Positions 17,833 to 41,002 of a stretch of 64,000 bases of DNA are shown here, piece after piece. Origin of the DNA: Struthio camelus (lineage: Eukaryota). Positions within the stretch are counted from its first letter, which is position 1; each line of letters starts with the position of its first letter. The stretch is from positions 981,853 through 1,045,852 of the forward strand of contig NC_090973.1 of assembly GCF_040807025.1 (NCBI RefSeq), read 5' to 3'. The position numbers and the translations under genes were made by a program. The notes beneath the pieces are model-generated. The model saw only the letters and a program-made list of their open reading frames with translations. It searched no databases and had not been told where the DNA came from.

Positions 17833-17835
17833 CAG

Positions 17836-17937: not shown

Positions 17938-17939
17938 GT

Positions 17940-18330
17940 GGGGCCCAGGCGTCCGGGAGGGATGAGGAGGGACCCAGGTGTCCGGGCCGGGGGGGGGGAC
18001 AGGAGGGTAGGAAAGAGGGGCCCAGGTGTCCGGGAGGAGCCAGGCCCCTTTGTGTGCAAACCAAATGTCTGGTGGGGGGGGGGGAGGGTGTCTGGAGCAA
18101 GAAGGGGCCCAGGCGTCCGGGGAGGGACCCAGGCGTCCTGGTGACATTCAAGCGTCTGGAGTGAGAAGGGATCCAGGCATCCGGGGAGGGGTCCCAGGTG
18201 TCCGGGGTTGGGGGACGGGGACCCAAGTGTCCAGGAGGCTTCCAGGTGCCTGGGACCAGAGGGGACCCAGGCGTCCGGGGCGGGGGGGAAGGACCCAGGC
18301 GTCCGGGAGGACCCAGACGTGCGGGCGCCG
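17940..18330. repeat. Block of the gggacccaggcgtccggg(ga) minisatellite family inside PPP4C intron 4
   Basis: It has the same unit as 10555-13130 and about 12 copies. Confidence 0.85.
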
Positions 18331-18333
18331 CAG

Positions 18334-18507
18334 GTGCGCTACCCCGACCGCATCACGCTGATCCGGGGCAACCACGAGAGCCGGCAGATCACGCAGGTCT
18401 ACGGCTTCTACGACGAGTGCCTGCGCAAGTACGGCTCCGTCACCGTCTGGCGCTACTGCACCGAGATCTTCGACTACCTCAGCCTCTCCGCCATCATCGA
18501 CGGCAAG
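18334..18507 (+). CDS. PPP4C: PPP4C coding exon 5
   Basis: cag acceptor 18331-18333. Encodes [58 protein letters not shown] (GNHE motif). gtgagc donor 18508. Confidence 0.92.
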
Positions 18508-18529
18508 GTGAGCGCCCCCCCGGGGCCTG

Positions 18530-20750
18530 CGGGTAGCCCCGCGGCGCTCCTGCGGGGTGGCTGTGCTGCACACGCTAAGCACACGCTAAGAACATGCATG
18601 TTGTGTCGCACGTTCTGCTCACCCGGGACCTCCCTGTGTCCATCCGTGCTGCCCCAGGGTGCTTGGGTAGCCCCGCGGCGCTCCTGCGGGGTGGCTATGC
18701 CGCACACGCTAAGCACACGCTAAGCACATGGGTGTCGCACGCTGTGCTGTGCTCACCCGGGACCTGCCCGTGTCCCTCCGTGCTGCCCCAGGGTGCTTGG
18801 GTAGCCCCGTGGCGCTCCTGCGGGGTGGCTATGCCGCACACGCTAAGCACACGCTAAGCACATGGGTGTCGCACGCTGTGCTGTGCTCACCTGGGACCTC
18901 CCTGTGTCCCTCCGTGCTGCCCCAGGGTGCTTGGGTAGCCCCGCGGCGCTCCTGCGGGGTGGCTGTGCCGCACACGCTAAGCACACGCTAAGCACATGGG
19001 TGTCGCACGCTGTGCTGTGCTCACCTGGGACCTGCCCGTGTCCATCCGTGCTGCCCCAGGGTGCTTGGGTAGCCCCGCAGCGCTCCTGCGGGGTGGCTGT
19101 GCTGCACATGCTAAGCACACACTAAAAACATGCATGTTGTGTCGCACGTTCTGCTCACCTGGGACCTGCCCATGTCCATCCGTGCTGCCCCAGGGTGCTT
19201 GGGTAGCCCCGCGGCGCTCCTGCGGGGTGGCTGTGCCGCACACGCTAAGCACACACTAAGCACATGGGTGTCGCACACTGTGCTGTGCTCACCCGGGACC
19301 TGCCCGTGTCCATCCGTGCTGCCCCAGGGTGCTTGGGTAGCCCCGCGGCGCTCCTGTGGGGGGGGCTGTGCCGCACACGCTAAGCACACGCTAAAAACAT
19401 GCATGTTGTGTTGCACGTTCTGCTCACCCGGGACCTGCCCGTGTCCCTCCGTGCTGCCCCAGGGTGCTTGGGTAGCCCCGTGGCGCTCCTGCGGGGTGGC
19501 TATGCCGCACACGCTAAGCACACGCTAAGCACATGGGTGTCGCACGCTGTGCTGTGCTCACCCGGGACCTGCCCGTGTCCCTCCGTGCTGCCCCAGGGTG
19601 CTTGGGTAGCACCGCGGCGCTCCTGCGGGGTGGCTGTGCCGCACACGCTAAGCACACGCTAAAAACATGCATGTTGTGTCGCACGTTCTGCTCACCCGGG
19701 ACCTGCCCGTGTCCCTCCGTGCTGCCCCAGGGTGCTTGGGTAGCCCCGTGGCGCTCCTGTGGGGGGGCTGTGCCGCACACGCTAAGCACACGCTAAAAAC
19801 ATGCATGTTGTGTCGCACGTTCTGCTCACCCGGGACCTGCCCGTGTCCCTCCGTGCTGCCCCAGGGTGCTTGGGTAGCCCCGCGGCGCTCCTGCGGGGTG
19901 GCTGTGCCGCACACGCTAAGCACACGCTAAGCACATGGGTGTCGCACGCTGTGCTGTGCTCACCCGGGACCTCCCTGTGTCCATCCGTGCTGCCCCAGGA
20001 TGCTTGGGTAGCCCCGTGGCGCTCCTGCGGGGTGGCTATGCCGCACACGCTAAGCACACGCTAAGCACATGGGTGTCGCACGCTGTGCTGTGCTCACCTG
20101 GGACCTGCCTGTGTCCATCCGTGCTGCCCCAGGGTGCTTGGGTAGCCCCGCGGCGCTCCTGCGGGGTGGCTGTGCCGCACACGCTAAGCACACGCTAAGC
20201 ACATGGGTGTCGCACGCTGTGCTGTGCTCACCTGGGACCTGCCCGTGTCCATCCGTGCTGCCCCAGGGTGCTTGGGTAGCCCCGCAGCGCTCCTGCGGGG
20301 TGGCTGTGCCGCACATGCTAAGCACACGCTAAAAACATGCATGTTGTGTTGCACGTTCTGCTCACCCGGGACCTGCCCGTGTCCCTCCGTGCTGCCCCAG
20401 GGTGCTTGGGTAGCCCCGTGGCGCTCCTGTGGGGTGGCTATGCCGCACACGCTAAGCACACGCTAAGCACATGGGTGTCGCACGCTGTGCTGTGCTCACC
20501 CGGGACCTGCCCGTGTCCATCCGTGCTGCCCCAGGGTGCTTGGGTAGCCCCGTGGCGCTCCTGTGGGGTGGCTATGCCGCACACGCTAAGCACACGCTAA
20601 GCACATGGGTGTCGCACGCTGTGCTGTGCTCACCCGGGACCTGCCCGTGTCCATCCGTGCTGCCCCAGGGTGCTTGGGTAGCCCCGCGGCGCTCCTGCGG
20701 GGGGGCTGTGCCGCACACGCTAAGCACACGCTAAGCACACGCATGTTAGG
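18530..20750. repeat. 134-bp tandem repeat x~16.5 in PPP4C intron 5
   Basis: Identical 87-aa ORFs recur every 134 bp on both strands. The unit ...gcacacgctaagcacatgggtgtcgcacgctgtgctgtgctcacccgggacctg... resembles the acceptor/exon-6 start cacgctaagcacacgcgtgtgccgtgcagATTTTCTGCGTGCACGGGGGCCTG. Confidence 0.95.
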
Positions 20751-21032
20751 CACCTTACTGTGCACCTTGCGTGTCCCTACGCGTGGCCACGTCGTTCTGA
20801 GGTACAGCGTAGGCCCCTCTTCCTTCTTGCAGGCCGAGTGTGCAGCACATACTAAGCACATGCTAAGCACACGCGTGTTGCATGCCCAACTTACACTGCC
20901 GCAGAGCCTAAGGGCTGGGCAGCGGGCCGGGGGCGCCCTGCGGTGACACGGGAAAGCCCGGCGGGGTGGGGGGGAAGGCCGGCGGGGGGCCGGCGGCACG
21001 GCCCACGCTAAGCACACGCGTGTGCCGTGCAG

Positions 21033-21159
21033 ATTTTCTGCGTGCACGGGGGCCTGTCGCCCTCCATCCAGACGCTGGACCAGATCCGCACCATCGACCG
21101 CAAGCAGGAGGTGCCCCACGACGGCCCCATGTGCGACCTGCTCTGGTCCGACCCCGAAG
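21033..21159 (+). CDS. PPP4C: PPP4C coding exon 6
   Basis: cag acceptor 21030-21032. Encodes [42 protein letters not shown](G). gtaggc donor 21160. Confidence 0.92.
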
Positions 21160-21164
21160 GTAGG

Positions 21165-22400
21165 CAGCCCACGCGAGGCGCACGCTAAGCCCACGCGAGG
21201 CGCACGCTAAGCCCACGCGAGGCGCACGCTAAGCCCACGCGAGGCCTGCTGCCGGCTGTGCAGGCGGGTGGTGTCTGTGCGGGGTGCTGACACGTAGCAA
21301 GCGTGTTGGAGGCGCAACGCACTGGGCGGCGTCCCCCCTGCGCGGGGCCGACACGCGTGTGCCACGCGTGTGGCCGACCCCACGGGCTGGCCCACGTCCC
21401 CGCACGGGGCCGACACGCGTGTGCCCGACCCCCCCGGGCCGGCCCGTGTCCCTACGCGGGGCCGACACGCGTGTGCCATGCGTGTGGCCGACCCCATGGG
21501 CTGGCCCACGTCCCCGCGCGGGGCCGACACGCGTGTGCCATGCGTGTGGCCGACCCCACGGGCTGGGCCACGTCCCCCCATGGGGCCGACACACGTGTGC
21601 CATGCGTGTGGCCGACCCCACGGGCTGGCCCACGTCCCCCCATTGGGCCGACACGCGTGTGCCATGCGTGTGGCCGACCCCGTAGGCTGGCCCACGTCCC
21701 CCCATGGGGCTGACACGCGTGTGCCATGCGTGTGGCCGACCCCGTAGGCTGGCCCACGTCCCCCCATGGGGCCGACACGCGTGTGCCATGCGTGTGGCCG
21801 ACCCCGTAGGCTGGGCCACGTCCCCGTGCGGGGCCGACACGCGTGTGCCATGCGTGTGGCCGACCCCGTAGGCTGGGCCACGTCCCCGTGCGGGGCCGAC
21901 ACGCGTGTGCCATGCGTGTGGCCGACCCCGTAGGCTGGCCCACGTCCCCCCATGGGGCCGACACGCGTGTGCCATGCGTGTGGCCGACCCCGTAGGCTGG
22001 GCTACGTCCCCCCATGGGGCCGACACGCGTGTGCCATGCGTGTGGCCGACCCCGTAGGCTGGCCCACGTCCCCCCATGGGGCCGACACGCGTGTGCCATG
22101 CGTGTGGCCGACCCCGTAGGCTGGGCCACGTCCCCGTGCGGGGCCGACACGCGTGTGCCATGCGTGTGGCCGACCCCGTAGGCTGGCCCACGTCCCCCCA
22201 TGGGGCCGACACGCGTGTGCCATGCGTGTGGCCGACCCCGTAGGCTGGCCCACGTCCCCCCATGGGGCCGACACGCGTGTGCCATGCGTGTGGCCGACCC
22301 CGTAGGCTGGGCTACGTCCCCCCATGGGGCCGACACGCGTGTGCCCCGTGCGTGGCTGACCCCCCGTGGCCGACACGCGTGTGTCCCCCCCCCACGCGCG
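21165..22400. repeat. PPP4C intron 6 arrays: 22-bp cccacgcgaggcgcacgctaag x4 (21165-21250) and 62-bp unit gccgacacgcgtgtgccatgcgtgtggccgaccccgtaggctggcccacgtccccccatggg x~17 (21300-22350)
   Basis: The 62-bp unit is homologous to the exon-7 start. Repeat ccacgggctggcccacgtccccgcacggggccgac matches exon ccacgggctggggcgtgtccccgcgcggcgccggc. At peptide level, repeat [13 protein letters not shown] matches exon [13 protein letters not shown]. The unit contains the palindrome ACACGCGTGT. Confidence 0.9.
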
Positions 22401-22404
22401 GCAG

Positions 22405-22594
22405 ACACCACGGGCTGGGGCGTGTCCCCGCGCGGCGCCGGCTACCTCTTCGGCAGCGACGTGGTGGCCCAGTTCAACGCGGCCAACGACATCGACATGA
22501 TCTGCCGGGCCCACCAGCTCGTCATGGAGGGCTACAAGTGGCACTTCGGCGAGACCGTCCTCACCGTCTGGTCCGCCCCCAACTACTGCTACCG
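22405..22594 (+). CDS. PPP4C: PPP4C coding exon 7
   Basis: cag acceptor 22402-22404. Encodes (D)[62 protein letters not shown](R). gtgagg donor 22595. Confidence 0.92.
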
Positions 22595-22599
22595 GTGAG

Positions 22600-25500
22600 G
22601 GGGACGCCCGCGGGGACACGGGGACAAGCGTGGTGCTCTAACACGTCCCCGACGACGGAGAACGTGACCGGGGATGGAGATGGGGGGACGTGACCGAGGA
22701 CGGGATGGGGACGGGGGGGGACATGACCGAGGTTGGGATGGGGATGAGGGGACGTGACCAAGGACGGGATGGGGACATGGGGGGACATGACCGAGGACGG
22801 GATGGGGACATGGGGGGACATGACCGAGGACGGGATGGGGACATGGGGGGACATGACCAAGGACGGGATGGGGACATGGGGAGACTTGAGTGAGGATGGG
22901 GACAGGTGGTGACCGGGGACGGGACGGAGGAGACGTCACCGGGGATGGGGGGAACGTGACCGAGGACGAGGACAGAAGGACGCGACTGGGGGTGGGACGA
23001 GGGGACATGACCGAGGACGGGATGGGGATGAGGGGACGTGACCAAGGACGGGATGGGGACATGGGGGGACATGACCGAGGATGGGATGGGGACATGGGGG
23101 GACATGACCGAGGACGGGATGGGGACGGGGTGACATGACCGAGGACGGGATGGGGACATGGGGAGACTTGAGTGAGGATGGGGGCGGGTGGTGACCGGGG
23201 ACAGGGACGCGGGGATGCGGGTGGTGACCGGGGACGGGACGGAGGGGACGTCACCGGGGATGGGGGGAACGTGACCGAGGACGAGGACAGAAGGACGCGA
23301 CTGGGGGTGGGACGAGGGGACATGACCGAGGACGGGATGGGGATGAGGGGACGTGACCAAGGACGGGATGGGGACATGGGGGGACATGACCGAGGATGGG
23401 ATGGGGACATGGGGGGACATGACCGAGGACGGGATGGGGACGGGGTGACATGACCGAGGACGGGATGGGGACATGGGGAGACTTGAGTGAGGATGGGGGC
23501 GGGTGGTGACCGGGGACAGGGACGCGGGGATGCGGGTGGTGACCGGGGACGGGACGGAGGGGACGTCACCGGGGATGGGGGGAACATGACCGAGGACGAG
23601 GACAGAAGGACACGACTGGGGATGGGACGAGGGAACATGACCGAGGACGGGATGGGGATGAGGGGACATGACCGAGGACGGGATGGGGACATGGGGGGAC
23701 ATGACCGAGGACGGGATGGGGACATGGGGAGACTTGAGTGAGGATGGGGGCGGGTGGTGACCGGGGACAGGGACGCGGGGATGCGGGTGGTGACCGGGGA
23801 CGGGACGGAGGGGACGTCACCGGGGATGGGGGGAACATGACCGAGGACGAGGACAGAAGGACACGACTGGGGGTGGGACGAGGGGACATGACCGAGGACG
23901 GGATGGGGACGAGGGGACGTGACCAAGGACGGGATGGGGACATGGGGGGACATGACCGAGGACGGGATGGGGACATGGGGAGACTTGAGTGAGGATGGGG
24001 GCGGGTGGTGACCGGGGACGGGACGGAGGGGACGTCACCGGGGATGGGGGGAACGTGACCGAGGACGAGGACAGAAGGACGCGACTGGGGATGGGGACAT
24101 GGGGGGACGTGACCGAGGACGGGATGGGGATGAGGGGACATGACCGAGGACGGGATGGGGACATGGGGGGACATGACCGAGGATGGGATGGGGACATGGG
24201 GGGACATGACCAAGGACGGGATGGGGACATGGGGGGACGTGACCGAGGACGGGATGGGGATGAGGGGACATGACCGAGGACGGGATGGGGATGAGGGGAC
24301 GTGACCAAGGACGGGATGGGGACATGGGGGGACATGACCAAGGACGGGATGGGGACATGGGGGGACATGACCGAGGACGGGATGGGGACGGGGTGACATG
24401 ACCGAGGATGGGATGGGGACATGGGGAGACTTGAGTGAGGATGGGGACAGGTGGTGACCGGGGACGGGACGGAGGAGACGTCACCGGGGATGGGGGGAAC
24501 GTGACCGAGGACGAGGACAGAAGGACGCGACTGGGGGTGGGACGAGGGGACATGACCGAGGACGGGAAGGGGATGAGGGGACATGACCAAGGACGGGATG
24601 GGGACATGGGGGGACATGACCGAGGACGGGATGGGGATGAGGGGACATGACCGAGAACGGGATGGGGACGGGGGGGGAGTTGACTGAGGATGGGGGCGGG
24701 TGGTGACCGGGGACGGGACGGAGGAGACGTCACCGGGGATGGGGGGAACGTGACCGAGGACGAGGACAGAAGGACGCGACTGGGGGTGGGACGAGGTGAC
24801 ATGACCGAGGACGGGATGGGGATGAGGGGACGTGACCAAGGACGGGATGGGGACATGGGGGGACGTGACCAAGGACGGGATGGGGACATGGGGAGACTTG
24901 AGTGAGGATGGGGACAGGTGGTGACCGGGGACGGGACGGAGGAGACGTCACCGGGGATGGGGGGAACGTGACCGAGGACGAGGACAGAAGGACGCGACTG
25001 GGGATGGGACGAGGGGACATGACCAAGGACGGGATGGGGACATGGGGGGACATGACCGAGGACGGGATGGGGACGGGGTGACATGACCGAGGACGGGATG
25101 GGGACATGGGGAGACTTGAGTGAGGATGGGGGCGGGTGGTGACCGGGGACAGGGACGCGGGGATGCGGGTGGTGACCGGGGACGGGACGGAGGGGACGTC
25201 ACCGGGGATGGGGGGAACATGACCGAGGACGAGGACAGAAGGACGCGACTGGGGGTGGGACGAGGGGGAACGTGACTAAGGATGGGGACGGGGGGACGTG
25301 ACTGGGGACGGGAGGAGGTGACCGGGGACAGGACGGAGGGGACATGACTGGGGACGGGGAGAGGGGGAGGTGACCAGGGATGGGGACGGAGGACACATGA
25401 CCGGGGATGGGGACAAGGGGGACATGACCAAGGGCGAGGATGAGGGAGCGTGACCGGGGACAGGAGGAGGCGACCAGGGATGGGACAGAGGGGACATGAC

Positions 25501-26010
25501 CGAGGACGGGGACAGCGGGACGCGACTGGGGACAGGAGGACATGGCTAGGGACAGGTCGAGGGGGACATGACCGAGGACGGGGACAGCGGGACGCGACTG
25601 GGGACAGGGACGGAGGAGATGTGACCGAGGACGAGGAGAATGAGGACAAGGGGAACGTGACCGAGGACGGGAACAGGGGGAACGTGACCGGGGACGAGGT
25701 GACATGACCAGGGATGGGGTGAACATGAGCAGGGCCGAGGTGACATGACCGAGGACGGGGGGAACGTGACCGGGTATGGGTGAACATGATCAGGGCCGAG
25801 GTGACGTGACCGAGGACGGGGGGAACGTGACCGGGGATGGGTGAACATGTCCAGGGCCGAGGTGACATGATCAGGGCCGAGGTGACATGACCGAGGACGG
25901 GGGGAACGTGACCAGGGACGAGGTGACATGACCAGGGCCGAGGTGACGTGACCGAGGACGGGGGGAACGTGACCAGGGATGGGTGAACATGATGAGGGAC
26001 GAGGTGACAT
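22600..26010. repeat. PPP4C intron 7 ~31-bp G-rich minisatellite (gacatgaccgaggacgggatggggacatgggggg) with 250-315-bp higher-order units
   Basis: It has about 100 units, and the ORF track shows RDGDMGGHD periodic peptides. It fills the 3.5-kb intron. Confidence 0.95.
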
Positions 26011-26112
26011 GACCGAGGCCGGGCAGTCACGGCCGGTAACCGAGGTGAAGGGACACGCGTGTGGGGGCTCCGAGACGTCCGCAGGCGTCGGGTGACGTCC
26101 CCGTCCCCGCAG

Positions 26113-26242
26113 GTGTGGCAACGTGGCGGCCATCTTGGAGCTGGACGAGCACCTGCAGAAGGAGTTCATCATCTTCGAGGCGGCGCCGCAGGAGACCCGC
26201 GGCATCCCCTCCAAGAAGCCCGTGGCCGACTACTTCCTGTGA
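26113..26242 (+). CDS. PPP4C: PPP4C terminal coding exon (stop TGA 26240-26242)
   Basis: cag acceptor 26110-26112. Encodes (R)[42 protein letters not shown]. The 8 exons sum to 924 nt, giving 307 aa as expected for PPP4C. Confidence 0.92.
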
Positions 26243-27699: not shown

Positions 27700-28625
27700 G
27701 AGGGGGCGCCTATAGGGGGCGCCCAGGGGCTCTAGGGGGTTGGAGGAGGCGTGTGGGGGAGGGGCTATAGGGGATCTATAGGGGTTCCGGGGGGGGGGAT
27801 GTATGGGGGGTCCCGGGGGTCACGGGGGGGGGAAACGGGGTGTGTAGGGGCTCTACGGGGGCTATAGGGAGATATAGGGGGCTATATAGGAAGTTATGGG
27901 GGGGCATAGGGGCCATAGATGGGTAAACGGAGGAAAAAAGTGTGCTTTATGGCCCTATAGGAGGCATAGAAGATATAGGAGAGGCTATATAGGAGCTATA
28001 TAGCGTGGCCGTGGAGACTTGGGGCTCGTAAGAACTGTGTAGGGTCTATAAGAGATTATGGAAAGTCTATAGAAACTGCTGGGGGTTACGGGGCCTATAG
28101 AGGGTGGTAGAAGCCTATAGGGGGTCTGTAGGAGAGCAGACTGTATAGCGGGGGTAGGAGAGCGCTAGGGGGTTAGAGCCGATCTGTAGGGGCTGATGGA
28201 GGGGGGGCTGTAAAGGGATATATAGGGGCTGTAGGGTGGCCTGCAGGGCATGTAGGGGGGTTACGGGAACGCATATAGCATTGTCAGGAGCCTATAGGGA
28301 AGCGATTGAGGTCCTATAGGAGTTATTGAGCTCCTCTAGGAGTTATTGGGAGCCTATAGGGGGGTTATGGAATGGCGGGGGGGGGCTGCAGGGGGTTATA
28401 GAGCCCCTATGGGCGTTATAGGGGGTCCGTAGGGGGTCGCTATGGGGGTCCATAGGGGGTTGTATAGAGCCCCAGGACCACACGGGGGCAGCAGGAGGGA
28501 TTGGGGGTTAATAGGGGCCACAGGATGTATGGTTGCTAGGGCTGGTTGCTAGGGCACAGTTGCTCTGGTGGCTGGTTGCTAGGGGGCTGGTTGCTAGGGG
28601 CCGTTGCTAGGGGCTGTTGCTAAGG
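27700..28625. repeat. Degenerate ctataggg(g)/ctatatagga minisatellite, ending in ggttgctagggg x6 (28530-28620)
   Basis: It has about 40 copies of a TATAGG-containing unit. It is relatively AT-rich for this window. Confidence 0.8.
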
Positions 28626-28648
28626 CGCCGCGTGCTAGCCGGGCGGTC

Positions 28649-28692
28649 CCTTTAAGGGCACCCCCCCTCCCGCCCTCACCCAAGATGGCGGC
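28649..28692 (+). promoter_or_regulatory. TATA-like TTTAAGG (28651-28657) 30 bp upstream of a YY1/initiator-like cAAGATGGCGGCGGC (28682-28692), with ATTGG boxes at ~28795 and ~28840
   Basis: This spacing is typical of a TSS. The ATG at 28685 opens a 100-codon low-complexity ORF (MAAAASAAPPPALRRGG...) that contains the CCAAT boxes, so I treat it as regulatory rather than coding. Confidence 0.3.
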
Positions 28693-28899
28693 GGCGGCTT
28701 CGGCGGCCCCGCCTCCTGCCCTTCGCCGCGGCGGCGCCCGCCTCCCCCTGCCCTTCCTCCGCCCCCCGCCCCCCCCCCAGCAAGCCGCGCGCCCATTGGC
28801 CCGCGCCGGCGGCGGCCGGCAGCAAGGCGCGCGCCCATTGGCGGGGCCGCAGCGGGAGGTGGGAGGCGGGGGCGGGGGGCCAGTTGTGGGCCTGGGGGG

Positions 28900-30065: not shown

Positions 30066-31200
30066 GTGGTGTCAGCTGGAGCCTCCCATGAGCCTCTTGG
30101 TCTTACAAGGCTGACGTCAACCAGAGCCTCCCATGAGCCTCTGGGGCTTGTGTCAGCCAGAGCCTCCCATGAGCCTCTAGGGCTGACAGGGCTGATGTCA
30201 ACTGGAACCTCCCATGAGCCTCTCGGGTTGATGTCAACCAGAGCTTCCCACCAGCCTCTGGGGCCCGTGTCAAGCGGAGCCTCCCATGAGTCCCTGGGGC
30301 TGATGGGGCTGACATCAACCAGAGCCTGCCATGAGCGTCCGGGGCTAGTGTCAGCCAGAGCTTCCCATGAGTCTCTGGGGCTGGTGTCAACCAGAGCCTC
30401 CCATGAGCCTCTCGGGTTGATGTCAACCAGAGCCTCCCACCAGCCTCTGGGGCCCGTGTCAAGCGGAGCCTCCCATGAGTCCCTGGGGCTGATGGGGCTG
30501 ACATCAACCAGAGCCTGCCATGAGCGTCCGGGGCTAGTGTCAGCCAGAGCTTCCCATGAGTCTCTGGGGCTGGTGTCAACCAGAGCCTCCCATGAGCCTC
30601 TGGGGCTGATGTCAACCAGACCCTCCCGTGAGCCTCTGGGGCTGGTGTCAATCGGAGCCTCCCTTGAACCTCTGGGGCTGGTGTCAATCGGAGCCTCCCA
30701 TGGGCCTCTGGGGTCAGAGTCAACCAGAGCCTCCTATGAGCCTCTGGGGCTAGTGTCAACCGGAGCCTCCCATGAACCTCTGGGGCTGGTGTCAACCAGA
30801 GCCTCCCATGAGCCTCTGGGGCTGGTGTCAACCGGAACCTCCCATGAGCCTCTGGGGTCAGAGTCTCCCAAAACCTCCCGTGAGCCTCTGGGGCTGGTGG
30901 GGCTGACATCAACCTGTGCCTCCCATGAGCCTCTGGGGCTGGTGTCAACCGGAACCTCCCATGAGCCTCTGGGGCTGGTGTCAACTGGAACCTCCCATGA
31001 GCCTCTGGGGTCAGAGTCTCCCAAAACCCCCATGAGCCTCTGGGGCTGGTGGGGCTGACATCAACCTGTGCCTCCCATGAGCCTCTGGGGCTAGTGTCAA
31101 CTGGAGCCTCCCATGAGCCTCCAGGGCTGGTGTCAACTGGAGCCTCCCATGAGCCTCTGAGGCTGGTGTCAACCGGAGCTTCCCATGAGCCTCTGGGGTC
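30066..31200. repeat. 36/45-bp tandem repeat gtgtcaaccagagcctcccatgagcctctggggctg
   Basis: The track ORF 30066..31058 shows (ASHEPLGLVSTR)n periodicity, with about 28 units. Confidence 0.95.
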
Positions 31201-31228: not shown

Positions 31229-31289
31229 ATGACTTGCTGCCTGAGCCGTGATGTCACTGGGGGGGCGATGAGGTCACTGGCGGGGCTGT

Positions 31290-32357
31290 GATGACACGGG
31301 TTCCTGCGGCACCTATGGGAGCCATGGTGGGGGAGGGAGGGGCTTTAGGACCCGGGGCGGGGAGGCCGTTGGGGGCGGGACTACAACTCCCAGCGCGCTC
31401 CGCGCCCGGGCCTCCACTTCCCATGAGGGCTCTCCGCTCGGGAAGTCTCGCGAGACTACCGCGGCCCTTCCCCGCAGCTCTCGCGAGACCTGGGCGAGGG
31501 GGCGGGGCCCGGCGCCACGCGCCTCCCGCCGCCATCTTCCTTCCCTCCCCCTCTCCCCTCCCCACGCCGTTCCCGCGCGGGAGCGCCCGCTCCCGGCATA
31601 CCCCGCGGCGCCCCCCCCGGCTCCTCTCTGCTCTCGCGAGACTTCCCCCCTCCTCCCCCAACACCACCCCGCAAACCTCGCGAGGCTTCGCGCTCACGCC
31701 GCCACCACACCCCCCCGCGCGTTTTCCTCCATCTTCTCGCGAGACTTCCCCCCCTTCGCCGCGCCTCCATTTCCCATCCCCCTCCGCGCCGCACTCTCGC
31801 GAGACTTCCGCCCCCCCACAGGCTACGAGGTCGCCACCCCCTCTCCTCTCGCGAGACTTCCTCTCCCCCCTCCCCTCGGGTGCTCCCCCCCCCCCCGCTT
31901 TCTTTTCTCGCGAGAGCCGCCGGGCCGCGCCGGGCCGCCGCCATTTTGTTGCTCGCCCTGGCGCCGCGGACTCCATTTCCCGTGAGCCCCTCTCGGCGGC
32001 GGGGCCTGGCGCGGGGGGGGGGGCGGCGGCGGCGGGAGCGGGAGGAGGAGGAGGAGGCGGCGGCGGCCGCTCGGAGGCGGCGGGAGGAAGGGGAAGGGGA
32101 GGAAGTGGTGGTGGTGGTGGTGGTGGGCGGCGGGGGAGTGAAGCGAGGTAGCGGCGTCCGCCATTTTGCCGCGGCGGTAGTTGGTGGTGGCGGGGGAGGG
32201 GGGGCGGGCGCGGATGGCGGCGGATCGGCCCGGGCTGAGGCGGCGGCGGCGGCGGCGGTAGGCGGGAGCGGGCAGGCGCCTCCCCTCTCCCCCGCCTCCC
32301 CCCCCCCCCCGTCTCCCGCCTTCGCCGCCCCCCCCCTCCCCTCCCGCCCAGGTAAGA
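31290..32357 (+). promoter_or_regulatory. SRCAP: CpG-island promoter, candidate SRCAP promoter and non-coding exon 1
   Basis: It carries a ZNF143/THAP11-like ACTACAACTCCCAGC (31380-31394). There are seven perfect TCTCGCGAGA copies starting at 31446, 31479, 31632, 31735, 31795, 31847 and 31906, plus a variant at 31676. YY1-like GCCGCCATCTT (31528-31538), GCCGCCATTTTG (31937-31948) and CCGCCATTTTG (32158-32168) are present. A consensus 5' splice site CAG|GTAAGA (GT at 32352-32353) overlaps AAGATGGCGGCG, and a 3.4-kb repeat-filled intron then leads to the acceptor at 35751. Confidence 0.5.
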
Positions 32358-32559
32358 TGGCGGCGCGGACGCGGCCCCGCGCGCTCTTCCCCCCCCCCCC
32401 TCCTCCTCCTCCTCCTCCCGCCCGCGGGAAACGGCGGGAAACGGCCGCGCGCCGCCCCCTCCCCCCACCCCCCTGCCGGCGGCCGGTAACGGCAGCGGCC
32501 GCGCGCGTGAGGCGCCTCCTTCCCTTCCCCCCCCCCCCCCGTCCACACACACACTCCCG

Positions 32560-35500
32560 GGTTACGGGACCGGTGTGGGGCGGGGGGGGGGGGACCGGTG
32601 TGGGGAGCTCCGGTGTGGGGTGAGAGGGGGGGGGACCGGTGTGGGGTGAGGGGGGCCCCGGTGTGGGGAGCTCCGGTGTGGGTTGGGGGGGGGGGACCGG
32701 TGTGAGGTGAAGGGGGCCCCGGTGTGGGGAGCTCCGGTGTGGGGTGAGGGGGGGGGACCGGTGTGGGGTGAGGGAGGCCCCGGTGTGGGGAGCTCCAGTG
32801 TGGGGTGAAGGGGGCCCCGGTGTGGGGAGCTCTGGTGTGGGGCAGCTAGGAGCTCTGGTGTGGGGTGAGGGGAGCCTAGGTGTGGGGAGCCCCGGTGTGG
32901 GGCAGCTAGGAGCCCCGGTGTGGGGTGAGGGGGGCCCCGGTGTGGGGAGCTCTGGTGTGGGGCAGCTAGGAGCTCCGGTGTGGGGTGAGGGAGGCCCAGG
33001 TGTGGGGTGAGGGAGGCCCCGGTGTGGGGAGCCCCGGTGTGGGGCAGTTAGGAGCTCTGGTGTGGGGTGAGGGAGGCCCCGGTGTGGGGAGCCCCGGTGT
33101 GGGGCAGCTATGAGCCCCGGTGTGGGGTGAAGGGGGCCCAGGTGTGGGGGAGCTCCGGTGTGGGGTGAGGGAGGCCCCGGTGTGGGGAGCCCTGGTGTGG
33201 GGTGAAGGGGGCCCAGGTGTGGGGGAGCTCCGGTGTGGGGTGAGGGAGGCCCCGGTGTGGGGAGCCCTGGTGTGGGGTGAAGGGGGCCCAGGTGTGGGGG
33301 AGCTCCGGTGTGGGGCAGCTAGGAGCCCCGGTGTGGGGTGAGGGGGGCCCAGGTGTGGGGAGCTCTGGTGTGGGGCAGCTAGGAGCTCCGGTGTGGGGTG
33401 AGGGGGGCCTAGGTGTGGGGAGCTCTGGTGTGGGGCAGCTAGGAGCCCCGGTGTGGGGTGAGGGGGGCCCCGGTGTGGGGAGCTCTGGTGTGGGGCAGCT
33501 AGGAGCTCTGGTGTGGGGTGAGGGGGGCCCCGGTGTGGGGAGCTCTGGTGTGGGGCAGCTAGGAGCCCCGGTGTGGGGTGAGAGGGGGGCCCCGGTGTGG
33601 GGAGCCCCGGTGTGGGGCAGCTAGGAGCCCCGGTGTGGGGTGAGGGGGGCCCCGGTGTGGGGAGCTCTGGTGTGGGGCAGCTAGGAGCCCCGGTGTGGGG
33701 TGAGAGGGGGGCCCCGGTGTGGGGAGCCCCGGTGTGGGGTGAGGGGGGCTCCGGTGTGGGGTGAAGGGGGCCCCGGTGTGGGGAGCTCTGGTGTGGGGCA
33801 GCTAGGAGCTCCGGTGTGGGGTGAGGGGGGCCCCGGTGTGGGGAGCTCTGGTGTGGGGCAGCTAGGAGCCCCGGTGTGGGGTGAGAGGGGGGCCCCGGTG
33901 TGGGGAGCCCCGGTGTGGGGTGAGGGGGGCTCCGGTGTGGGGTGAAGGGGGCCCCGGTGTGGGGAGCTCTGGTGTGGGGCAGCTAGGAGCCCCGGTGTGG
34001 GGTGAGGGAGGCCTAGGTGTGGGGTGGGAGGGGGGCCTAGGTGTGGGGAGCTCCGGTGTGGGGTGGGGGGGGGGGGGCTGCGGTGTGGGGAGCCCCGGTA
34101 TGGGGCAGCTAGGAGCTCCGGTGTGGGGCAAAGGGGGCCCCAGTGTGGGGTGAGGGGGGCCCCGGTGTGGGGGATCTCCGGTGTGGGGCAGCTAGGAGCC
34201 CCGGTGTGGGGCAAAGGGGGCCCCGGTGAGGGGAGGTCAGTGAGGGGAGCCCCGGTGTAGGGTGAGGGGAGCCTCAATGTGGGGAACCGCAATGTGGGGT
34301 AGCCAGGAGCCCCGGTGTGGGGCAAAGGGGGCTCTGGTGTGGGGTGAGGGGGTGCTCGGTGAGGGGAGCCCCAGTGTGCAGTGAGGGGGGTCCCAGTACG
34401 GGGCAGCCAGGTGCCCCAGTGAGGGGCCCTGGTGGGGGGCGAGGGGGTCCCCAGTGAGGGGGTCCCAGTATGGGGCAGCCAGGTGCCCCAGTGAGGGGTC
34501 CTGGTGTGGGGTGAGGGGGTCCCCGGTGAGGGGGTCCCAGTATGGGGCAGCCAGGAGCCCCAGTGAGGGGTCCTGGTGTGGGGTGAGGGGCTCCCTGGTG
34601 AGGGGGTCCCAGTATGGGGCAGCCAGGAGCCCCAGTGAGGGGTCCTAGTGGGGGGTGAGGGGGCCTGAGTGTGGGGTGAGGGGCTCCCTGGTGAGGGGGT
34701 CCCAGTATGGGGCAGCCAGGCGCCCCAGTGAGGGGCCCTGGTGTGGGGTGAGGGGGCCTGGGTGTGGGGTGAGGGGCTCCCCGGTGAGGGGGTCCCAGTA
34801 TGGGGCAGCCAGGAGCCCCAGTGAGGGGCCCTGGTGTGGGGTGAGGGGGTCCCCGGTGAGGGGGTCCCAGTATGGGGCAGCCAGGCGCCCCAGTGAGGGG
34901 TCCTGGTGTGGGGTGAGGGGCTCCCTGGTGAGGGGGTCCCAGTATGGGGCAGCCAGGCGCCCCAGTGAGGGGTCCTGGTGTGGGGTGAGGGGCTCCCCGG
35001 TGAGGGGGTCCCAGTATGGGGCAGCCAGGAGCCCCAGTGAGGGGCCCTGGTGTGGGGTGAGGGGGTCCCAGTGTGGGGTGAGGGGCTCCCCGGTGAGGGG
35101 GTCCCAGTATGGGGCAGCCAGGCGCCCCAGTGAGGGGTCCTGGTGTGGGGTGAGGGGGTGCTCAATGAGAGGAGCCCCGATGTGGGGCGAGGGGCCCCAG
35201 TACCGGGGGCAGGGGAGCCTGGGGAGGACAGAGGGGGGTCAAGGTGCCCCCACGGAGGGGTCTGGGCCAGGGTCTCAGTGGGGCTTTGGGGTGTCCCCAG
35301 TGTGGGGGTCAGGGGGGCTCAGGGTGCTCCCAATGTGGCTGGGGGGGGGGGCTCAGTGTGGGGGCCGGGGGGACCCAGCATGTGGGTCAAGGAGGGCTCA
35401 GGGTGCCCCCAATGTGGCTGAGGGGGGGGTCCTAGGGTGGGGCTCAGGGTGCCCCCAGCGTGGGGGTCAAGGAGGGCTCAGGGTGCCCCCAGTGTAGGGG

Positions 35501-35600
35501 TCAGGGGGTCCCAGCGTGGAGCTCAGGGTGCCGCCAGCGTGGGGGTCAGGGGGGTCCTTGGGGGGGGCTGCGGGTGCCCTCAGCATGGGGGCAATTTGGG
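32560..35600. repeat. G-rich minisatellites in putative SRCAP intron 1: ~60-bp ccggtgtggggtgaggggggccccggtgtggggagctctggtgtggggcagctaggag (32560-34400) and ~80-bp ggtcccagtatggggcagccaggagccccagtgaggggtcctggtgtggggtgaggggctccc (34400-35180)
   Basis: Regular tandem periodicity, and ORFs with (PHTGTPSPGS)n-type peptides on the minus strand. Confidence 0.95.
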
Positions 35601-35751
35601 GTTGGGGGGGGCACCGGGTCAGAGGGCACCGCGAGGTCAAAGGTGGCACCTGGGAGCTGTTGTGGCAGTGTTTGGGGGGGGGGGGGGGGCGGGCGCCGGC
35701 AGCACCCACGGGTGCCCCCCACCCACCCCCCTCCCCCTCGTCTCCCCACAG

Positions 35752-35825
35752 CTGCGCCCCTCGCCGCCCCACCGGCACCGTGGAAGTGGAGTGCGAGGAA
35801 GACGAGGAGGGCCCAGCGCACGCAG
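35752..35825 (+). CDS. SRCAP: Tentative SRCAP 5' coding exon (no ATG)
   Basis: Strong polypyrimidine tract plus cacag acceptor (AG 35750-35751) and caggtgggg donor (GT 35826). It is followed by a tidy 101-bp intron. It reads (C)APRRPTGTVEVECEEDEEGPAHA(G) in phase with the next exon. It has no counterpart in the human N-terminus, so it is lineage-specific or 5'UTR. Confidence 0.35.
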
Positions 35826-35926: not shown

Positions 35927-36378
35927 GCAGTTCGGCGACCGGCGGCCCAGAGCGCAGGCTGGGCCGCCAGGGCACCCAGGAGCTGGACGGCTCGTCCCGG
36001 CGGCCGCCTGAGCAGGATGAGGCCGCCTCGCAGCACGCCCTGGGGCAGCCCGCGGCGCCCCGCGCCCAGCCGGCGCCGCCGCCGGCCCCCCCCGCCGCCG
36101 CCCCCCCCCTGCCGCCGCGCCCCGAGGTGACGGCCGCCCCCCCGGGCGGCGGGGGCGGCGCGTTGCGCCCCTCGCCCTCTCCCCCGCCGCCCCCACCCCC
36201 CAGCGCCCCCGGCAGCGAGCCCGTGTCGCCCGCCTCGGCCGGCTCGCCCGCTTCCGGCGCCGCCGCCGGCGGCTCGCCCCCCGCCAACGCCCGCCTCGAC
36301 GCCGCCGCCGCCGCCCCCCCGGACCCCCCCAGCCTCTGGGACAAGACCCACGCCGAGATCGCCGAGCAGGCCAAGCAC
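35927..36378 (+). CDS. SRCAP: SRCAP N-terminal coding exon ending ...SLWDKTHAEIAEQAKH
   Basis: ttctgcag acceptor 35921-35926. The frame reads ...SEPVSPASAGSPASGAAAGGSPP...DPPSLWDKTHAEIAEQAKH, matching human SRCAP ...SNPVSPASSSSPASSGAGGISPQ...KSHAEIAEQAKH. gtgagt donor 36379. There is no in-frame ATG in this exon. Confidence 0.8.
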
Positions 36379-39300
36379 GTGAGTGCAGGCGGGGAGGTGT
36401 TTTGGGGCAAATTGGGGTGGTTTTGGGGCCCGCTTGAGAATCAAACCCGTGCTGAGATCGCTGAGCACGTGTGTGTGGGGTCAGAGCAGTGTTTTGGGGT
36501 GGTTTTGGGTCCCTCTTGAGAATCAAACCCACGCTGAGGTCTCTCAGCACGTGTGTGTGGGGTCAGAGCAGTGTTTTGGGGCGAATCAGGGTGGTTTTGG
36601 GTCCCTCTCGACAATTGGAACCCACGCCAAGATCGCCGAGGAGGCCAAGGCCGTGAGTGCAGGCGGGGAGGCGTTTTGGGGTGAATCGGGGCGGTTTTGG
36701 GTCCCGTTTGAGAATCAAAACCCACGCCAAGATCGCTGAGGAGGCCAAGGATGTGAGTGTAGGTGGGGAGGTGTTTTGGGGCAATTTGAGGCGGTTTTGG
36801 GGCCCGCTTGAGAATCAAACCCGTGCTGAGATCGCTGAGCACGTGTGTGTGGGGTCAGAGCAGTGTTTTGGGGTGATTTGGGGTGGTTTTGGGGCCCGCT
36901 TGAGAATCAAATCCGTGCTGAGGTCTCTCAGCACGTGTGTGTGGGGTCAGAGAAGTGTTTTGGGGCGAATCAGGGTGGTTTTGGGTCCCTCTCGACAATT
37001 GTAACCCACGCCGAGATCGCCGAGCAGGCCAAGCACGTGAGTGCAGGTGGGGAGGTGTTTTGGGGCAAATTGGGGTGGTTTTGGGGCCCGCTTGAGAATC
37101 AAACCCGTGCTGAGATCGCTGAGCACGTGTGTGTGGGGTCAGAGCAGTGTTTTGGGGTGATTTGGGGTGGTTTTGGGTCCCTCTTGAGAATCAAACCCAC
37201 GCTGAGGTCTCTCAGCACGTGTGTGTGGGGTCAGAGCAGTGTTTTGGGGCGAATCAGGGTGGTTTTGGGTCCCTCTCGACAATTGGAACCCACGCCAAGA
37301 TCGCCGAGGAGGCCAAGGCCGTGAGTGCAGGCGGGGAGGCGTTTTGGGGTGAATCGGGGCGGTTTTGGGTCCCGTTTGAGAATCAAAACCCACGCCAAGA
37401 TCGCTGAGGAGGCCAAGGATGTGAGTGTAGGTGGGGAGGTGTTTTGGGGCAATTTGAGGCGGTTTTGGGGCCCACTTGAGAATCAAACCCGTGCTGAGAT
37501 CGCTGAGCACGTGTGTGTGGGGTCAGAGCAGTGTTTTGGGGTGATTTGGGGTGGTTTTGGGTCCCTCTCGATAAGTGGAACCCACGCCGAGATCGCCGAG
37601 GAGGCCAAGGACGTGAGTGCAGGTGGGGAGGCGTTTTGGGGCGATTCGGGGCGGTTTTGGGTCCCGCTTGAGAATCAAAACCCACGCCGAGATCGCCGAG
37701 GAGGCCAAGGATGTGAGTGTAGGCGGGGAGGTGTTTTGGGGCAATTTGAGGCGGTTTTGGGTCCCGCTTGAGAATCAAACCTATGCTGAGATCTCTGAGC
37801 CCGTGCGTGTGGGGACGCAGAAGTGTTTTGGGGCGATTTGGGGCGGTTTTGGGTCCCTCTCGATAGTTGGAACCCACGCCGAGATCGCCGAGGAGGCCAA
37901 GGACGTGAGTGCAGGTGGGGAGGCGTTTTGGGGCGATTCGGGGCGGTTTTGGGTCCTGCTTGAGAATCAAACCTATGCTGAGATCTCTGAGCCCGTGCGT
38001 GTGGGGTCAGAGCAGTGCTTTGGGGCGAATCGGGGCGGTTTTGGCTTTCTCTTGAGAATCAAAACCCACGCCAAGATCGCTGAGGAGGCCAAGGACGTGA
38101 GTGCAGGCAGGGAGGCGTTTTGGGGCAATTTGGGGCGGTTTTGGGTCCCACTGGAGGATTAAACCTGTGCTGGCATCACTGAGCCCATGTGTGTGGGGAC
38201 GGAGAAGCGTTTTAGGGTGCTTTGGGGCGGTTTTGGGTCCCACTCGAGAATCAAACCCGTGCTGAGGTTGCTGAGCACGTGTGTGTGGGGTCAGAGCAGT
38301 GTTTTGGGGTGATTTGGGGTGGTTTTGGGTCCCTCTCAAGAACCAAAACCCGTGCTGAGATCGCCGAGGAGGCCAAGGACGTGAGTGCAGGCGGGGAGGA
38401 GTTTTGGGGCAATTTGAGGCGGTTTTGGGTCCCACTCGATGCTCAAACCCACGCTGAGATCCCTGAGCATATGCGTGTGGGGACGCAGAAGTGTTTTGGG
38501 GCGAATCGGGGCGGTTTCGGGTCCCTCTCGATAATTGGAACCCTCGCCGAGCAGGCCGAGGACGAGAGTGCGGGCAGGGAGGCGTTTTGGGGCGAATCGG
38601 GGCGGTTTCAGGTCCCTCTTGATAATTGAAGCCCGTGCTGAGATGGCCGAGCATGTGTGTGTGGGCTCAGAGCAGTGTTTTGGGGCGAATTGGGGCGGTT
38701 TTGGGTCCTTCTTGATGATCAGAACCCGCTCAGGTATCGCCGAGCAGGCCAAGCACATGAGCGCAGGCAGGGAGGTGTTTTGGGGTGAATCGGGGCGGTT
38801 TTGGGTCCCTCTCAATAATTGAATCACGTGCTGAGATCGCTGAGCACAAGCACGTGGGGTCGGAGAAGTGTTTTGGGGCGATTTGGGGTGGTTTTGGGTT
38901 CCTCTCCAGAATCAAAACCCATGCCGGGATCGCCGAGCAAGCCGAGCGCACGCGTCTGGGGTCAGAGCAGTGTTTTGGGGTGAATCAGGGTGATTTTGGG
39001 TCCCTCTCGATAATTGAAGCCCGTGCCGAGATTGGTGAGCCCCTGCGTGTGGGGTCAGAGCAGTGTTTTGGGGCGAATCGGGGTGGTTTTGGGTTTCTCT
39101 TGGGAATCAAAGCCTGCGCTGAGATCGCTGAGGAGGCCAAGGACGTGAGTGCAGGCGGGGAGGCGATTTGGGGTGAATCAGGACAGTTTTGGGTCCCTCT
39201 CGAGAACCCAAACTCACACCAAGATTGGTGAGCCCGTGCGTGTGGGCTCAGAGCAGTGTTTTGGGGCGAATCGGGGCAGTTTTGGGTCGCTCTCGAGAAC

Positions 39301-40300
39301 CCAAACTCCTGCCAAGATCGCTGAGCCTGTGCGTGTGGGGTCAGAGCAGTGTTTTGGGGCGAATCGGGGTGGTTTTGGGTTTCTCTTGAGAATCAAAACG
39401 TGCGCCGAGATCGCTGAGGAGGCCAAGGACGTGAGTGCAGGCGGGGAGGTGTTTTGGGGTGATTTGAGGTGGTTTTGGGTCCCTCTCGATGATCCAAACC
39501 CGCGCCGAGGTCACTGAGCAGACCAAGCATGAGTGCTGATGGGGAGGTGATTTGGGGTGATTTGGGACGATTTTGGGTCCTTCTTAAGAATCAAAACCCA
39601 CGCTGAGATCTCTGAGCCCGTGCGTGTGGGGTCAGAGCAGTGTTTTGGGGCGAATTGGGGTGGTTTTGGGTTTCTCTTGAGAATCAAAACGTGCGCGGAG
39701 ATCCCTGAGGAGTCCAAGCATGTGAGCGCAGGTGGGGAGATGTTTTGGGGTGAATCGGGGTGGTTTTGGGTTTCTCTCAAGAACCAAAACCCACACCAAG
39801 ATTGCTGAGGAGGCCAAGCGTGTGGATGCAGGCAGGGAGGCGTTTTGGGGCAAATTGAGGCAGTTTTTGGTCCCTCTCGAGAACCCAAACTCCCACCAAG
39901 GTCGCCGAGCCCGTGCGTGTGGGGTCAGAGCAGTGTTTTGGGGCGAATCGGGGCGGTTTTGGGTTTCTCTTGGGAATCAAAAACCCGCGTGGACATCGTT
40001 GAGGAGGCCAAGGATGTGAGTGCAGGCGGGGAGGCGATTTGGGGCGAATCAGGACAGTTTTGGGCCCCTCTCGAGAACCCAAACTCACACCAAGATCGCT
40101 GAGCCCGTGCGTGTGGGCTCAGAGCAGTGTTTTGGGGCGAATCGGGGTGGTTTTGGGTTTCTCTTGGGAATCAAAGCCTGCGCTGAGATCGCTGAGGAGG
40201 CCAAGGACGTGAGTGCAGGCAGGGAGGTGTTTTGGGGTGAATCGAGGTGGTTTTGGGTCCCTCTCGAGAACCCAAACTCCCGCCAAGGTCGCCGAGCCCG
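36379..40300. repeat. ~140-bp tandem repeat (x~28) derived from the SRCAP exon-B 3' end plus splice donor
   Basis: Each unit carries a copy of acccacgccgagatcgccgagcaggccaagcacGTGAGTGCAGGcggggagg. An exact 44-nt copy including the GT donor lies at 37004-37047. Diverged copies are at 36610-36665, 36728-36770, 37298, 37386, 37575, 37690, 37880, 38075, 38350 and others. Repeat ORFs encode THAKIAEEAKD, versus real THAEIAEQAKH. Confidence 0.9.
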
Positions 40301-41002
40301 TGCGTGTGGGCTCAGGGCAGTGTTCTGGGGCGAATCGGGGCGGTTTCGGGTCTGCCGCGGAGCCCGGCGACCGCCGAGGGCAGCCCGAAGCGTGGCGACG
40401 CCGGGAGGCGTCTCGCGGCGCTTCGGCCCTTCTCCCCTTGCGGCCGGAGCCGAGCTCCCCGGCGGGGGGGGAGGGGGGGGGACGTGCAGCTTTTGGGGTG
40501 AATCGAGGTGGTTTTGGGTCCCTCTTGATAATCGGGCCGCGTTGAGATCGCTGAGCCCGTGCGTGTGGGGTCAGAGCAGTGTTTTGGGGTGATTCGAGGT
40601 GGTTTTGGGTCCCTCTCGAGAACCAAAACCTGTGCTGAGATCGCCGAGGAGGCCAAGGACGTGAGTGCAGGCGGGGAGGTGATTTGGGGCGAATCGAGGT
40701 GGTTTTGGGTCCCTCTCGAGAACTCAAACTCACACCAAGATTGGTGAGCCCGTGCGTGTGGGCTCAGGGCAGTGTTCTGGGGCGAATCGGGGCGGTTTCG
40801 GGTCCGCCGCGGAGCCCGGCGACCGCCGAGGGCAGCCCGAAGCGTGGCGACGCCGGGAGGCGTCTCGCGGCGCTTCGGCCCTTCTCCCCTTGCGGCCGGA
40901 GCCGAGCTCCCCGGGCGGGCGGGCGAGCGGGCGACGGGGCCGGTTTTGGGGGCGAAGCCGGGCGGTTTCGGGCCCGCCGCGACGCCTCGCCTGGCCGGGC
41001 AG

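Follow-up and report, generated by a model that had tools for sequence, protein, structure and literature searches.

The CGCG element suffices for transcription by RNA polymerase II and is silenced by methylation (PMC6192621). It usually lies 20-70 nucleotides (nt) upstream of the transcription start site (TSS), on either strand, and tends to occur in more than one copy. When 1, 2 and 4 copies were tested, reporter output was proportional to copy number (PMC6192621). The variant TATCGCGAGA is common and active, variants flanked by CCT/AGG gave lower reporter activity, and human DNase-accessible islands hold 413 copies in total (PMC6192621). BANP binds the motif, opens CpG-island chromatin and positions start sites; THAP11 also opens chromatin, and sites for YY1 are found downstream of TSSs (bioRxiv 10.64898/2026.05.04.722487). 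The full-length BANP protein is mainly tetrameric, and its oligomerisation gives selectivity for unmethylated CGCG (PMC11472053). Zebrafish use the motif in the same way, and some zebrafish genes carry multiple motifs (PMC9363121). Here we analyzed a stretch of 64,000 nt from the ostrich Struthio camelus (contig NC_090973.1; called the window, with positions counted from its first letter). In this palaeognath bird the interval 31290-32357 very probably comprises the promoter of SRCAP, within a CpG island, and the first exon of the gene, which is non-coding. At the core of the interval, eight CGCG elements form a homotypic cluster, which we propose to be bound by BANP.

The perfect palindrome TCTCGCGAGA, with its central CGCG, occurs exactly seven times in the 64 kb. 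All seven copies lie within 31446-31915, with starts at 31446, 31479, 31632, 31735, 31795, 31847 and 31906. Dinucleotide-preserving shuffles gave an expectation of 0.01 copies per window, and none of 100 shuffles reached seven. A first-pass annotation, made by a model from the letters alone, had called seven perfect copies within 470 bp unusually dense, and the shuffles bear this out. When mismatches were allowed, an eighth copy, CCTCGCGAGG, was added at 31676, which has two mismatches and retains the palindrome. The elements, to which no strand is assigned, were named E1 (31446-31455), E2 (31479-31488), E3 (31632-31641), E4 (31676-31685, the degenerate copy), E5 (31735-31744), E6 (31795-31804), E7 (31847-31856) and E8 (31906-31915), the last being closest to the gene. 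All but E4 are perfect in the window. The eight are spread over 470 bp, and the spacing from E3 to E8 is 44-60 bp. With its flanks, E1 forms GGAAGTCTCGCGAGACTACC, a palindrome at 19 of 20 positions.

The promoter was compared with its counterparts in two further palaeognath genomes (L009 and L010). Identity of the window to either was about 76-78%, and L009 and L010 were closer to each other. The alignment of all three covers ~1.05 kb with a mean column identity of 83%. All eight element positions are orthologous in the three species, and 22 of the 24 instances are perfect. L010 has eight perfect elements. L009 has seven, with TCACGCGAGA at E2, which is perfect in the window and L010, and the window has seven, with CCTCGCGAGG at E4, whose orthologues (L009 26035, L010 24818) are perfect. 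E1 and E3 are perfect in all three. The motifs have 80 columns, of which 74 are invariant, and no gaps; the array spacers have 259 invariant columns of 358, and 71 more are gapped (Fisher p = 7e-5; 3e-9 with gaps counted). With this contrast, and with spacers that show no repeat homology, the array is a selected homotypic site cluster whose motifs are under purifying selection, and not a minisatellite.

The array could instead be a by-product of the local minisatellite regime, that is, a decayed tandem repeat whose extra copies beyond one or two have no function. Minisatellites do crowd both sides of the island, and E3-E8 keep a rough 44-60 bp period. In addition, four copies share the longer word TCTCGCGAGACTTCC, which makes an ancient origin by duplication plausible. 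However, Tandem Repeats Finder (TRF) reported no repeat array in 31290-31915, only short C-rich runs, and global alignments of the spacers within the array scored no better than shuffles. A recent tandem-repeat origin was rejected on these two grounds; the copies are therefore not a young minisatellite and are held individually by selection. The eight positions were kept in three species while the spacers diverged by 12-24% with many indels, whereas identity in the motif columns is 92-99%, with no gaps. Moreover, the two CpGs of each motif would decay fast if they were unconstrained and methylated. We consider the by-product explanation highly improbable.

Outside the palaeognaths, the kakapo (L001), a neognath, has three perfect elements in the same place, followed by the same GCCGCCATTTTG and CATTTCCCGTGAGCCCC boxes as the window. 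The rat Srcap locus (L002) has one element, a variant. The count thus runs from one in rat and three in kakapo to eight in palaeognaths, with the kakapo number possibly an underestimate if the assembly collapsed. The alignment of window, kakapo and rat by MAFFT was too noisy per column, so landmark order and BLAST pairs were used for these comparisons. No recognisable promoter was found within reach in mackerel and shark contigs. The wider comparison was uninformative: the swallow contig begins inside the gene and the garter snake locus is riddled with Ns.

The elements lie in a CpG island at 31251-32500 (+ strand) that holds the SRCAP promoter and exon 1 and is alignable with both palaeognaths. 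The whole window is 68% G+C, so G+C alone does not define the island. The ratio of observed to expected CpG (o/e) does define it: the ratio is 0.75-1.2 within 31251-32500, whereas the minisatellites on either flank, which are equally GC-rich, have values of 0.1-0.3. This contrast gives the island called earlier sharp boundaries. The ratio serves as a sequence proxy for a presumed unmethylated state of the island. The GC skew is about -0.55 over the array and becomes about +0.6 from 31950 on. The flip, at 31950-32000, falls about 40-80 nt after E8.

Two other classes of site had been proposed for the island, a ZNF143/THAP11-like ACTACA..TCCCAGC site and YY1-like sites, and both were recovered. 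The first, ACTACAACTCCCAGC (31380-31394, + strand), is a THAP11/ZNF143-type site of the SBS kind with the ACTACA extension. It is unique in the window, with 0 expected, and the literature supports the motif assignment. Its counterparts are ACTACATCTCCCAGC in L009 and L010 and ACTACAACTCCCA in rat. The 5' part of the THAP11/ZNF143 composite, ACTACA followed by two bases and TCCCAGC, is present. The 3' part of the SBS, ..AATGCATTGCG, is not matched, and the window has GCGCGCTCCGCG after TCCCAGC. Three further ACTCCATTTCCC-like boxes match at 10 of 12 positions only.

YY1-type sites were scored with CCGCCATNTT, which has five occurrences in the window (0.23 expected), four of them in the island (31529, 31938, 32158 and 32354). 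The island matches read GCCGCCATCTT at 31528, GCCGCCATTTT at 31937 and CCGCCATTTT at 32158, with AAGATGGCGGC at 32354 on the other strand. They comprise two full 11/11 matches to the consensus AAGATGGCGGC and two CCGCCATTTT boxes, and have the GCCAT core with AAGATGGCGGC-type flanks. The box CCGCCGCCATCTT (31526-31538) has AAGATGGCGGC on the minus strand and is invariant in the three species. The box CCGCCGCCATTTTG (31935-31948, + strand) lies 22 nt after E8, is invariant in palaeognaths and has a kakapo counterpart at L001 10154. The second CCGCCATTTT box (32158-32167, + strand) is the likely orthologue of the mammalian GGCGGCCATTTTGG. The last, AAGATGGCGGC at 32354-32364 (+ strand), is a full YY1 consensus that overlaps the beginning of intron 1 and does not vary among the palaeognaths.

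Besides the CGCG elements, several other parts of the island are invariant or nearly so in the three palaeognaths. These are the ACTACA box, a GC box, CGCCGCCATCTTCC, both CCATTTTG boxes, the three ACTCCATTTCCC-like boxes, the start CGCGGATGGCGGCGGATCGGC of an upstream open reading frame (uORF), a 36-nt block around TTCCCGCGCGGGA, and the stretch that spans the final 40 nt of exon 1, the donor and 24 nt of intron. The 36-nt block, ACGCCGTTCCCGCGCGGGAGCGCCCGCTCCCGGCAT (31564-31599), contains TTCCCGCGCGGGA as a palindrome and is identical in the window, L009 and L010. We take this palindrome to be a putative E2F-like site, from its resemblance to the consensus.

The gene downstream of the island is SRCAP. 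Its exons were mapped on the + strand, where they begin at 35752 and extend past 62 kb. When the ATPase exons were translated, the resulting 268 residues had as their best PDB match 6igm_H, "Helicase SRCAP" (E 1.6e-176), and the N-terminal exons match database proteins named "helicase SRCAP-like" with an HSA domain. The upstream neighbour, PPP4C, ends 5 kb upstream on the same strand, and the island therefore sits in the intergenic gap between PPP4C and SRCAP.

The predicted exon 1 ends at 32351 with the donor CAG/GTAAGA (32349-32357, + strand). On a simple donor matrix the site at 32352 scored 7.1 bits, compared with 3.9 for the next best within 31900-32700, and is the top donor of the island. 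Scores this high were found at 3 of the 4674 GT sites on the + strand of the window. The donor and the 24 bases that follow it are invariant in the three palaeognaths. The acceptor of the first downstream SRCAP exon has its AG at 35750-35751. Both splice sites are thus where the first-pass annotation had put them (a consensus donor at 32352 and an acceptor at 35751).

Promoter, donor and next exon are homologous to a mammalian SRCAP exon 1 that is supported by transcripts. In rat Srcap, 4 kb upstream of the ATG exon, the order is ACTACAACTCCCA, TATCGCGAGA, (GGT)n, GGCGGCCATTTTGG, a leader of ~230 nt, CAG/GTAAGG and AAGATGGCGG, the last lying 16 nt into intron 1. The window has the same order: ACTACA box, CGCG elements, (GGT)7, CCGCCATTTTG, ~190 nt and CAG/GTAAGATGGCGGC. 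Its (GGT)7 run (32105-32126, + strand) corresponds to the rat (GGT)n between the CGCG element and the CCATTTTG box, and BLAST pairs rat 6031-6122 with window 32105-32201. Two intron-less mammalian transcript contigs from public read assemblies (L003 and L008) align to rat as exon 1, ending at the CAG/GTAAGG donor, an exon 2 of 75-80 nt and the ATG exon. The 32351-35752 chain is therefore the avian counterpart of the transcript-supported mammalian structure, and we infer that this junction is used in ostrich.

Exon 2 ("exon A", 35752-35825, + strand) is homologous to the mammalian non-coding exon 2, and its GGCACCGTGGAAGTG is common to rat, the two mammalian transcripts, kakapo and L009. Exon 3 ("exon B", 35927-36378, + strand), which ends ...THAEIAEQAKH/GTGAGT, is homologous to the mammalian exon that contains the ATG. 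With the downstream exons and the rat homology together, the earlier suggestion that the interval is SRCAP exon 1 is supported.

We considered whether the island is mainly the promoter of another transcript, such as a divergent minus-strand noncoding RNA or an unannotated gene, with SRCAP starting elsewhere, for example in the island at 28.6-28.9 kb. CGCG elements drive bidirectional transcription (PMC6192621), and 2.7 kb upstream there is another conserved block that resembles a promoter, with YY1 and two NF-Y boxes. However, the spliced transcripts of mammals begin in the homologous island and run on into SRCAP, the invariant donor faces SRCAP, and no minus-strand coding gene was found between PPP4C and SRCAP. 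Divergent upstream transcription would be an addition to an SRCAP promoter, not an alternative to it. That the island mainly serves another transcript, with SRCAP starting elsewhere, is very unlikely.

The TSS lies probably between E8 and the second CCATTTTG box, at about 31920-32155, as judged from the motifs and the mammalian homology. There are two candidate positions in this range. One is just after E8, where the YY1 box 22 nt downstream and the GC-skew flip would point to initiation. The other candidate, near 32150 and just upstream of the second CCATTTTG box, is suggested by where the mammalian transcripts have their 5' ends and by the BLAST pair of rat and window. L008 begins just upstream of the CCATTTTG box, and the mammalian start therefore lies between the CGCG element and this box.

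Several observations weigh against the assignment of the interval as an SRCAP promoter with a BANP-bound array and a first exon ending at 32351. First, the mammalian 5' ends imply a TSS at ~32100-32155, which would place the array 240-700 bp upstream, beyond the typical 20-70 nt. Second, exon 1 of the kakapo gene model ends at a weak donor, near 0 bits, that is homologous to window 31981/31982; no counterpart of the strong CAG/GTAAGA donor was found in kakapo. Third, there was no avian transcript with exon 1 among the database matches. Fourth, the chain of exons 1, 2 and 3 has no in-frame ATG in the assembly, so that the 5' gene model is incomplete in some respect. Finally, the choice of BANP over ZBTB33/Kaiso draws on mammalian and fish work.

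The second of these points raises the possibility that exon 1 ends at another donor, either CCC/GTGAGC at 31981/31982 in the CATTTCCCGTGAGCCCC box or a GTAACG site further downstream. A kakapo model of RefSeq type ends its first exon at the homologous site, the CATTTCCCGTGAGCCCC box is invariant across birds, and kakapo has no strong donor downstream of it. In the window, the site at 31982 scores ~0 bits compared with 7.1 for 32352. The latter, with the neighbouring AAGATGGCGG, corresponds to the mammalian donor whose splicing is shown by experiment, and it does not vary among palaeognaths. The coding sequence (CDS) of the kakapo model begins inside the CGCG array, which looks like the result of an ATG search, and because of this we regard the model as an artefact. 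We find a different exon 1 end unlikely and retain the donor at 32352.

The weak donor lies in one of three conserved (C/A)CTCCA(C/T)TTCCC(A/G)T.. boxes, at 31411-31428, 31762-31779 and 31968-31993, which match ACTACAATTCCC at 10 of 12 positions. The third box, GGACTCCATTTCCCGTGAGCCCCTCT (+ strand, GT at 31982), is invariant in palaeognaths, and its part CATTTCCCGTGAGCCCC is conserved in kakapo too, where the box holds the donor of the gene model.

Concerning the factor, the promoter may be that of SRCAP while TCTCGCGAGA acts through a protein other than BANP, either ZBTB33/Kaiso or another avian factor. ZBTB33 ChIP-seq recovers the motif, and several papers assign it to Kaiso (e.g. PMC3663758). 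On the other side, studies based on degradation, on structure and on zebrafish mutants link the motif to BANP (bioRxiv 10.64898/2026.05.04.722487, PMC11472053, PMC9363121). The first-pass annotation had named the motif as a BANP target also linked to ZBTB33; the literature agrees on BANP, and ZBTB33 is the earlier assignment. Action through a non-BANP factor therefore seems rather unlikely, given those studies.

With BANP as the presumed factor, the promoter may work as follows. By analogy with mouse, human and zebrafish, this BEN-domain factor would bind the unmethylated array elements. Several BANP oligomers would evict nucleosomes and keep an unusually long stretch of ~500 bp nucleosome-free, and the island active and unmethylated despite the CpG-depleted minisatellite flanks. 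The upstream ACTACA..TCCCAGC site, of the THAP11/ZNF143/HCFC1 type, and GC boxes for Sp-type factors would add opening activity, and the CCGCCATTTTG and AAGATGGCGGC boxes would serve as YY1-type sites at or after the start site. The transcript would then run through the G-rich leader and be spliced from 32351 to 35752.

A more speculative scheme, which we hold to be doubtful though possible, concerns the origin of the array. The eight elements may be a bird-lineage amplification of a single ancestral BANP site that was selected as an array. Multivalent BANP tetramers would bridge elements spaced by ~55 bp and create a nucleosome-free, methylation-resistant platform of ~500 bp, which would shield the island of an essential gene, on a GC-rich microchromosome, from the methylated minisatellites that have invaded its two flanks. 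Each element might also be its own bidirectional initiator. If this were true, rat (1), kakapo (3) and palaeognaths (8) would form a natural dosage series for BANP site number versus CpG-island size and output.

Within the putative exon 1 there is a short uORF of 15 codons, ATGGCGGCGGATCGG...TAG (32214-32261, + strand). Its start context CGCGGATGGCGGCGGATCGGC is invariant in the three palaeognaths and its length varies among them. Intron 1 (32352-35751, + strand) is 3.4 kb long, compared with ~1.1 kb in L009, and consists mostly of a CpG-poor, G-rich minisatellite at about 32566-35600. The units of this family are 15-93 bp long and are built on GGTGTGGGG/GGTGAGGGG. On the other side, a minisatellite with a 36-bp unit, GGCTGGTGTCAACCAGAGCCTCCCATGAGCCTCTGG (~29 copies, 30109-31198), adjoins the island. 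It is common to L010 (23436-24352) with ~80% identity, and its core CCTCCCATGAGCCTCT resembles the promoter box CCACTTCCCATGAGGGCTCT at 31411.

Compared with mammals, the start codon region of SRCAP is altered in the window. Where mammals have the start ATG, the homologous codon is TTG (about 36163), and the ATG annotated in L009 (MTGSQPLSPAS, human Met24; L009 28264) is absent. The first in-frame ATG lies in the next exon, at about 41040, downstream of the conserved WDKTHAEIAEQAKH. Exon 2 contains a conserved Kozak-like GTG (gcaccGTGg), which the window has in common with kakapo, L009, rat and, with one base changed (gcatcGTGg in L008), the two mammalian transcripts. From this GTG up to the mammalian ATG, the window, rat and both mammalian transcripts all have an open frame, and its block GGPERRLGR has third-position changes only. 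In L009 a difference of 1 nt breaks the frame, and the CDS annotated there begins at the downstream ATG. A non-AUG (GUG) start giving a conserved N-terminal extension of SRCAP is possible from these reading frames. SRCAP was not found in those supplements of PMC9789052 that were searched. An intronic ATG at 35901, which would be in frame if a run of 11 Cs were mis-sized, was dropped. The kakapo ATG shares the same out-of-frame offset, and an assembly error at the C run is for this reason unlikely.

The 3' end of exon 3 with its donor (GAGATCGCCGAGCAGGCCAAGCAC/GTGAGT) has been amplified. A tandem array with a ~100-bp period and ~39 copies (36342-40352) fills the next intron. The 30-mer recurs without change at 37013, and a further nine copies differ by 2-3 mismatches, all of them with GTGAGT. 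The array is potentially a string of decoy donors.

PPP4C occupies 16100-26242, on the same strand as SRCAP, with eight coding exon blocks (exons 16100-26239) that encode 307 amino acids. Entries annotated in Struthio camelus and Apteryx mantelli have an identical protein. An ALDOA-like aldolase gene, PPP4C and SRCAP are adjacent in L009 and L010, and PPP4C and SRCAP are adjacent in kakapo too. The gap between the last two is 0.75 kb in kakapo versus ~5 kb in palaeognaths. Between the 3' end of PPP4C and the SRCAP island is a second small CpG-rich block (28540-28880), conserved in the three palaeognaths (L009 24310-24700, L010 22530-22900). It contains five to seven GGTTGCTAGGGG repeats, CCTTTAAG, AAGATGGCGGCGGCGGCTTC and two CAGCAAGNCGCGCGCCCATTGGC, which are NF-Y-type CCAAT boxes on the minus strand. 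From these motifs the block looks like another promoter. A scan of the whole 64-kb window with Rfam gave no family at its threshold.

These results give avian SRCAP a 5' end that is well supported, in a region rich in GC and laden with repeats. The few SRCAP gene models retrieved from databases are partial or oddly started, as in kakapo, where the CDS starts inside the CGCG array. The results also document an extreme and evolutionarily stable homotypic cluster of BANP-type sites, although no new kind of element. The array offers a natural test of whether promoter output scales with the number of CGCG copies, as it did in reporters, and of how factors that open chromatin set the limits of CpG islands.

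The promoter is of the ordinary housekeeping type that is already known. What is unusual is quantitative, namely eight conserved TCTCGCGAGA activator sites versus one in rat. The rat and mammalian Srcap promoters share with the window the same landmark order and an exon 2 homologous through GGCACCGTGGAAGTG. They differ in that rat Srcap has a single element, the variant TATCGCGAGA, whereas the bird has seven to eight perfect ones, a second CCATTTTG box and a more GC-rich, repeat-flanked setting. Compared with THAP11/ZNF143/HCFC1 sites ("motif 7", ACTACAATTCCC, PMC6192621), ACTACAACTCCCAGC fits the 5' two-thirds of the composite and was kept from bird to rat. Unlike the classical SBS, it leaves the 3' part AATGCATTGCG unmatched (GCGCGCTCCGCG in the window). 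YY1 sites are known at or downstream of CpG-island start sites, and the mammalian homologue of one SRCAP box likewise lies inside transcript L008. Unlike the usual case, there are four YY1-type sites in both orientations, and one overlaps the exon 1 donor, a position that is unusual yet conserved.

Known CGCG/BANP-motif promoters, such as those of HNRNPK, DENR and ribosomal-protein genes, have the identical 10-bp palindrome (PMC6192621, PMC2920758, PMC9363121, bioRxiv 10.64898/2026.05.04.722487). Like them, the SRCAP promoter is a TATA-less CpG island, here of a housekeeping chromatin gene, with an ACTACA..TTCCC motif alongside. Promoters of this kind are known to tend towards more than one copy, and the motif is conserved across vertebrates; E4 of the window resembles the weaker CCT/AGG-flanked variants of PMC6192621. 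In contrast to these promoters, most of the SRCAP elements lie beyond the usual 20-70 nt from the likely TSS. Whereas reporters used one to four copies, a single SRCAP promoter has eight elements, and all eight positions were retained in three palaeognaths.

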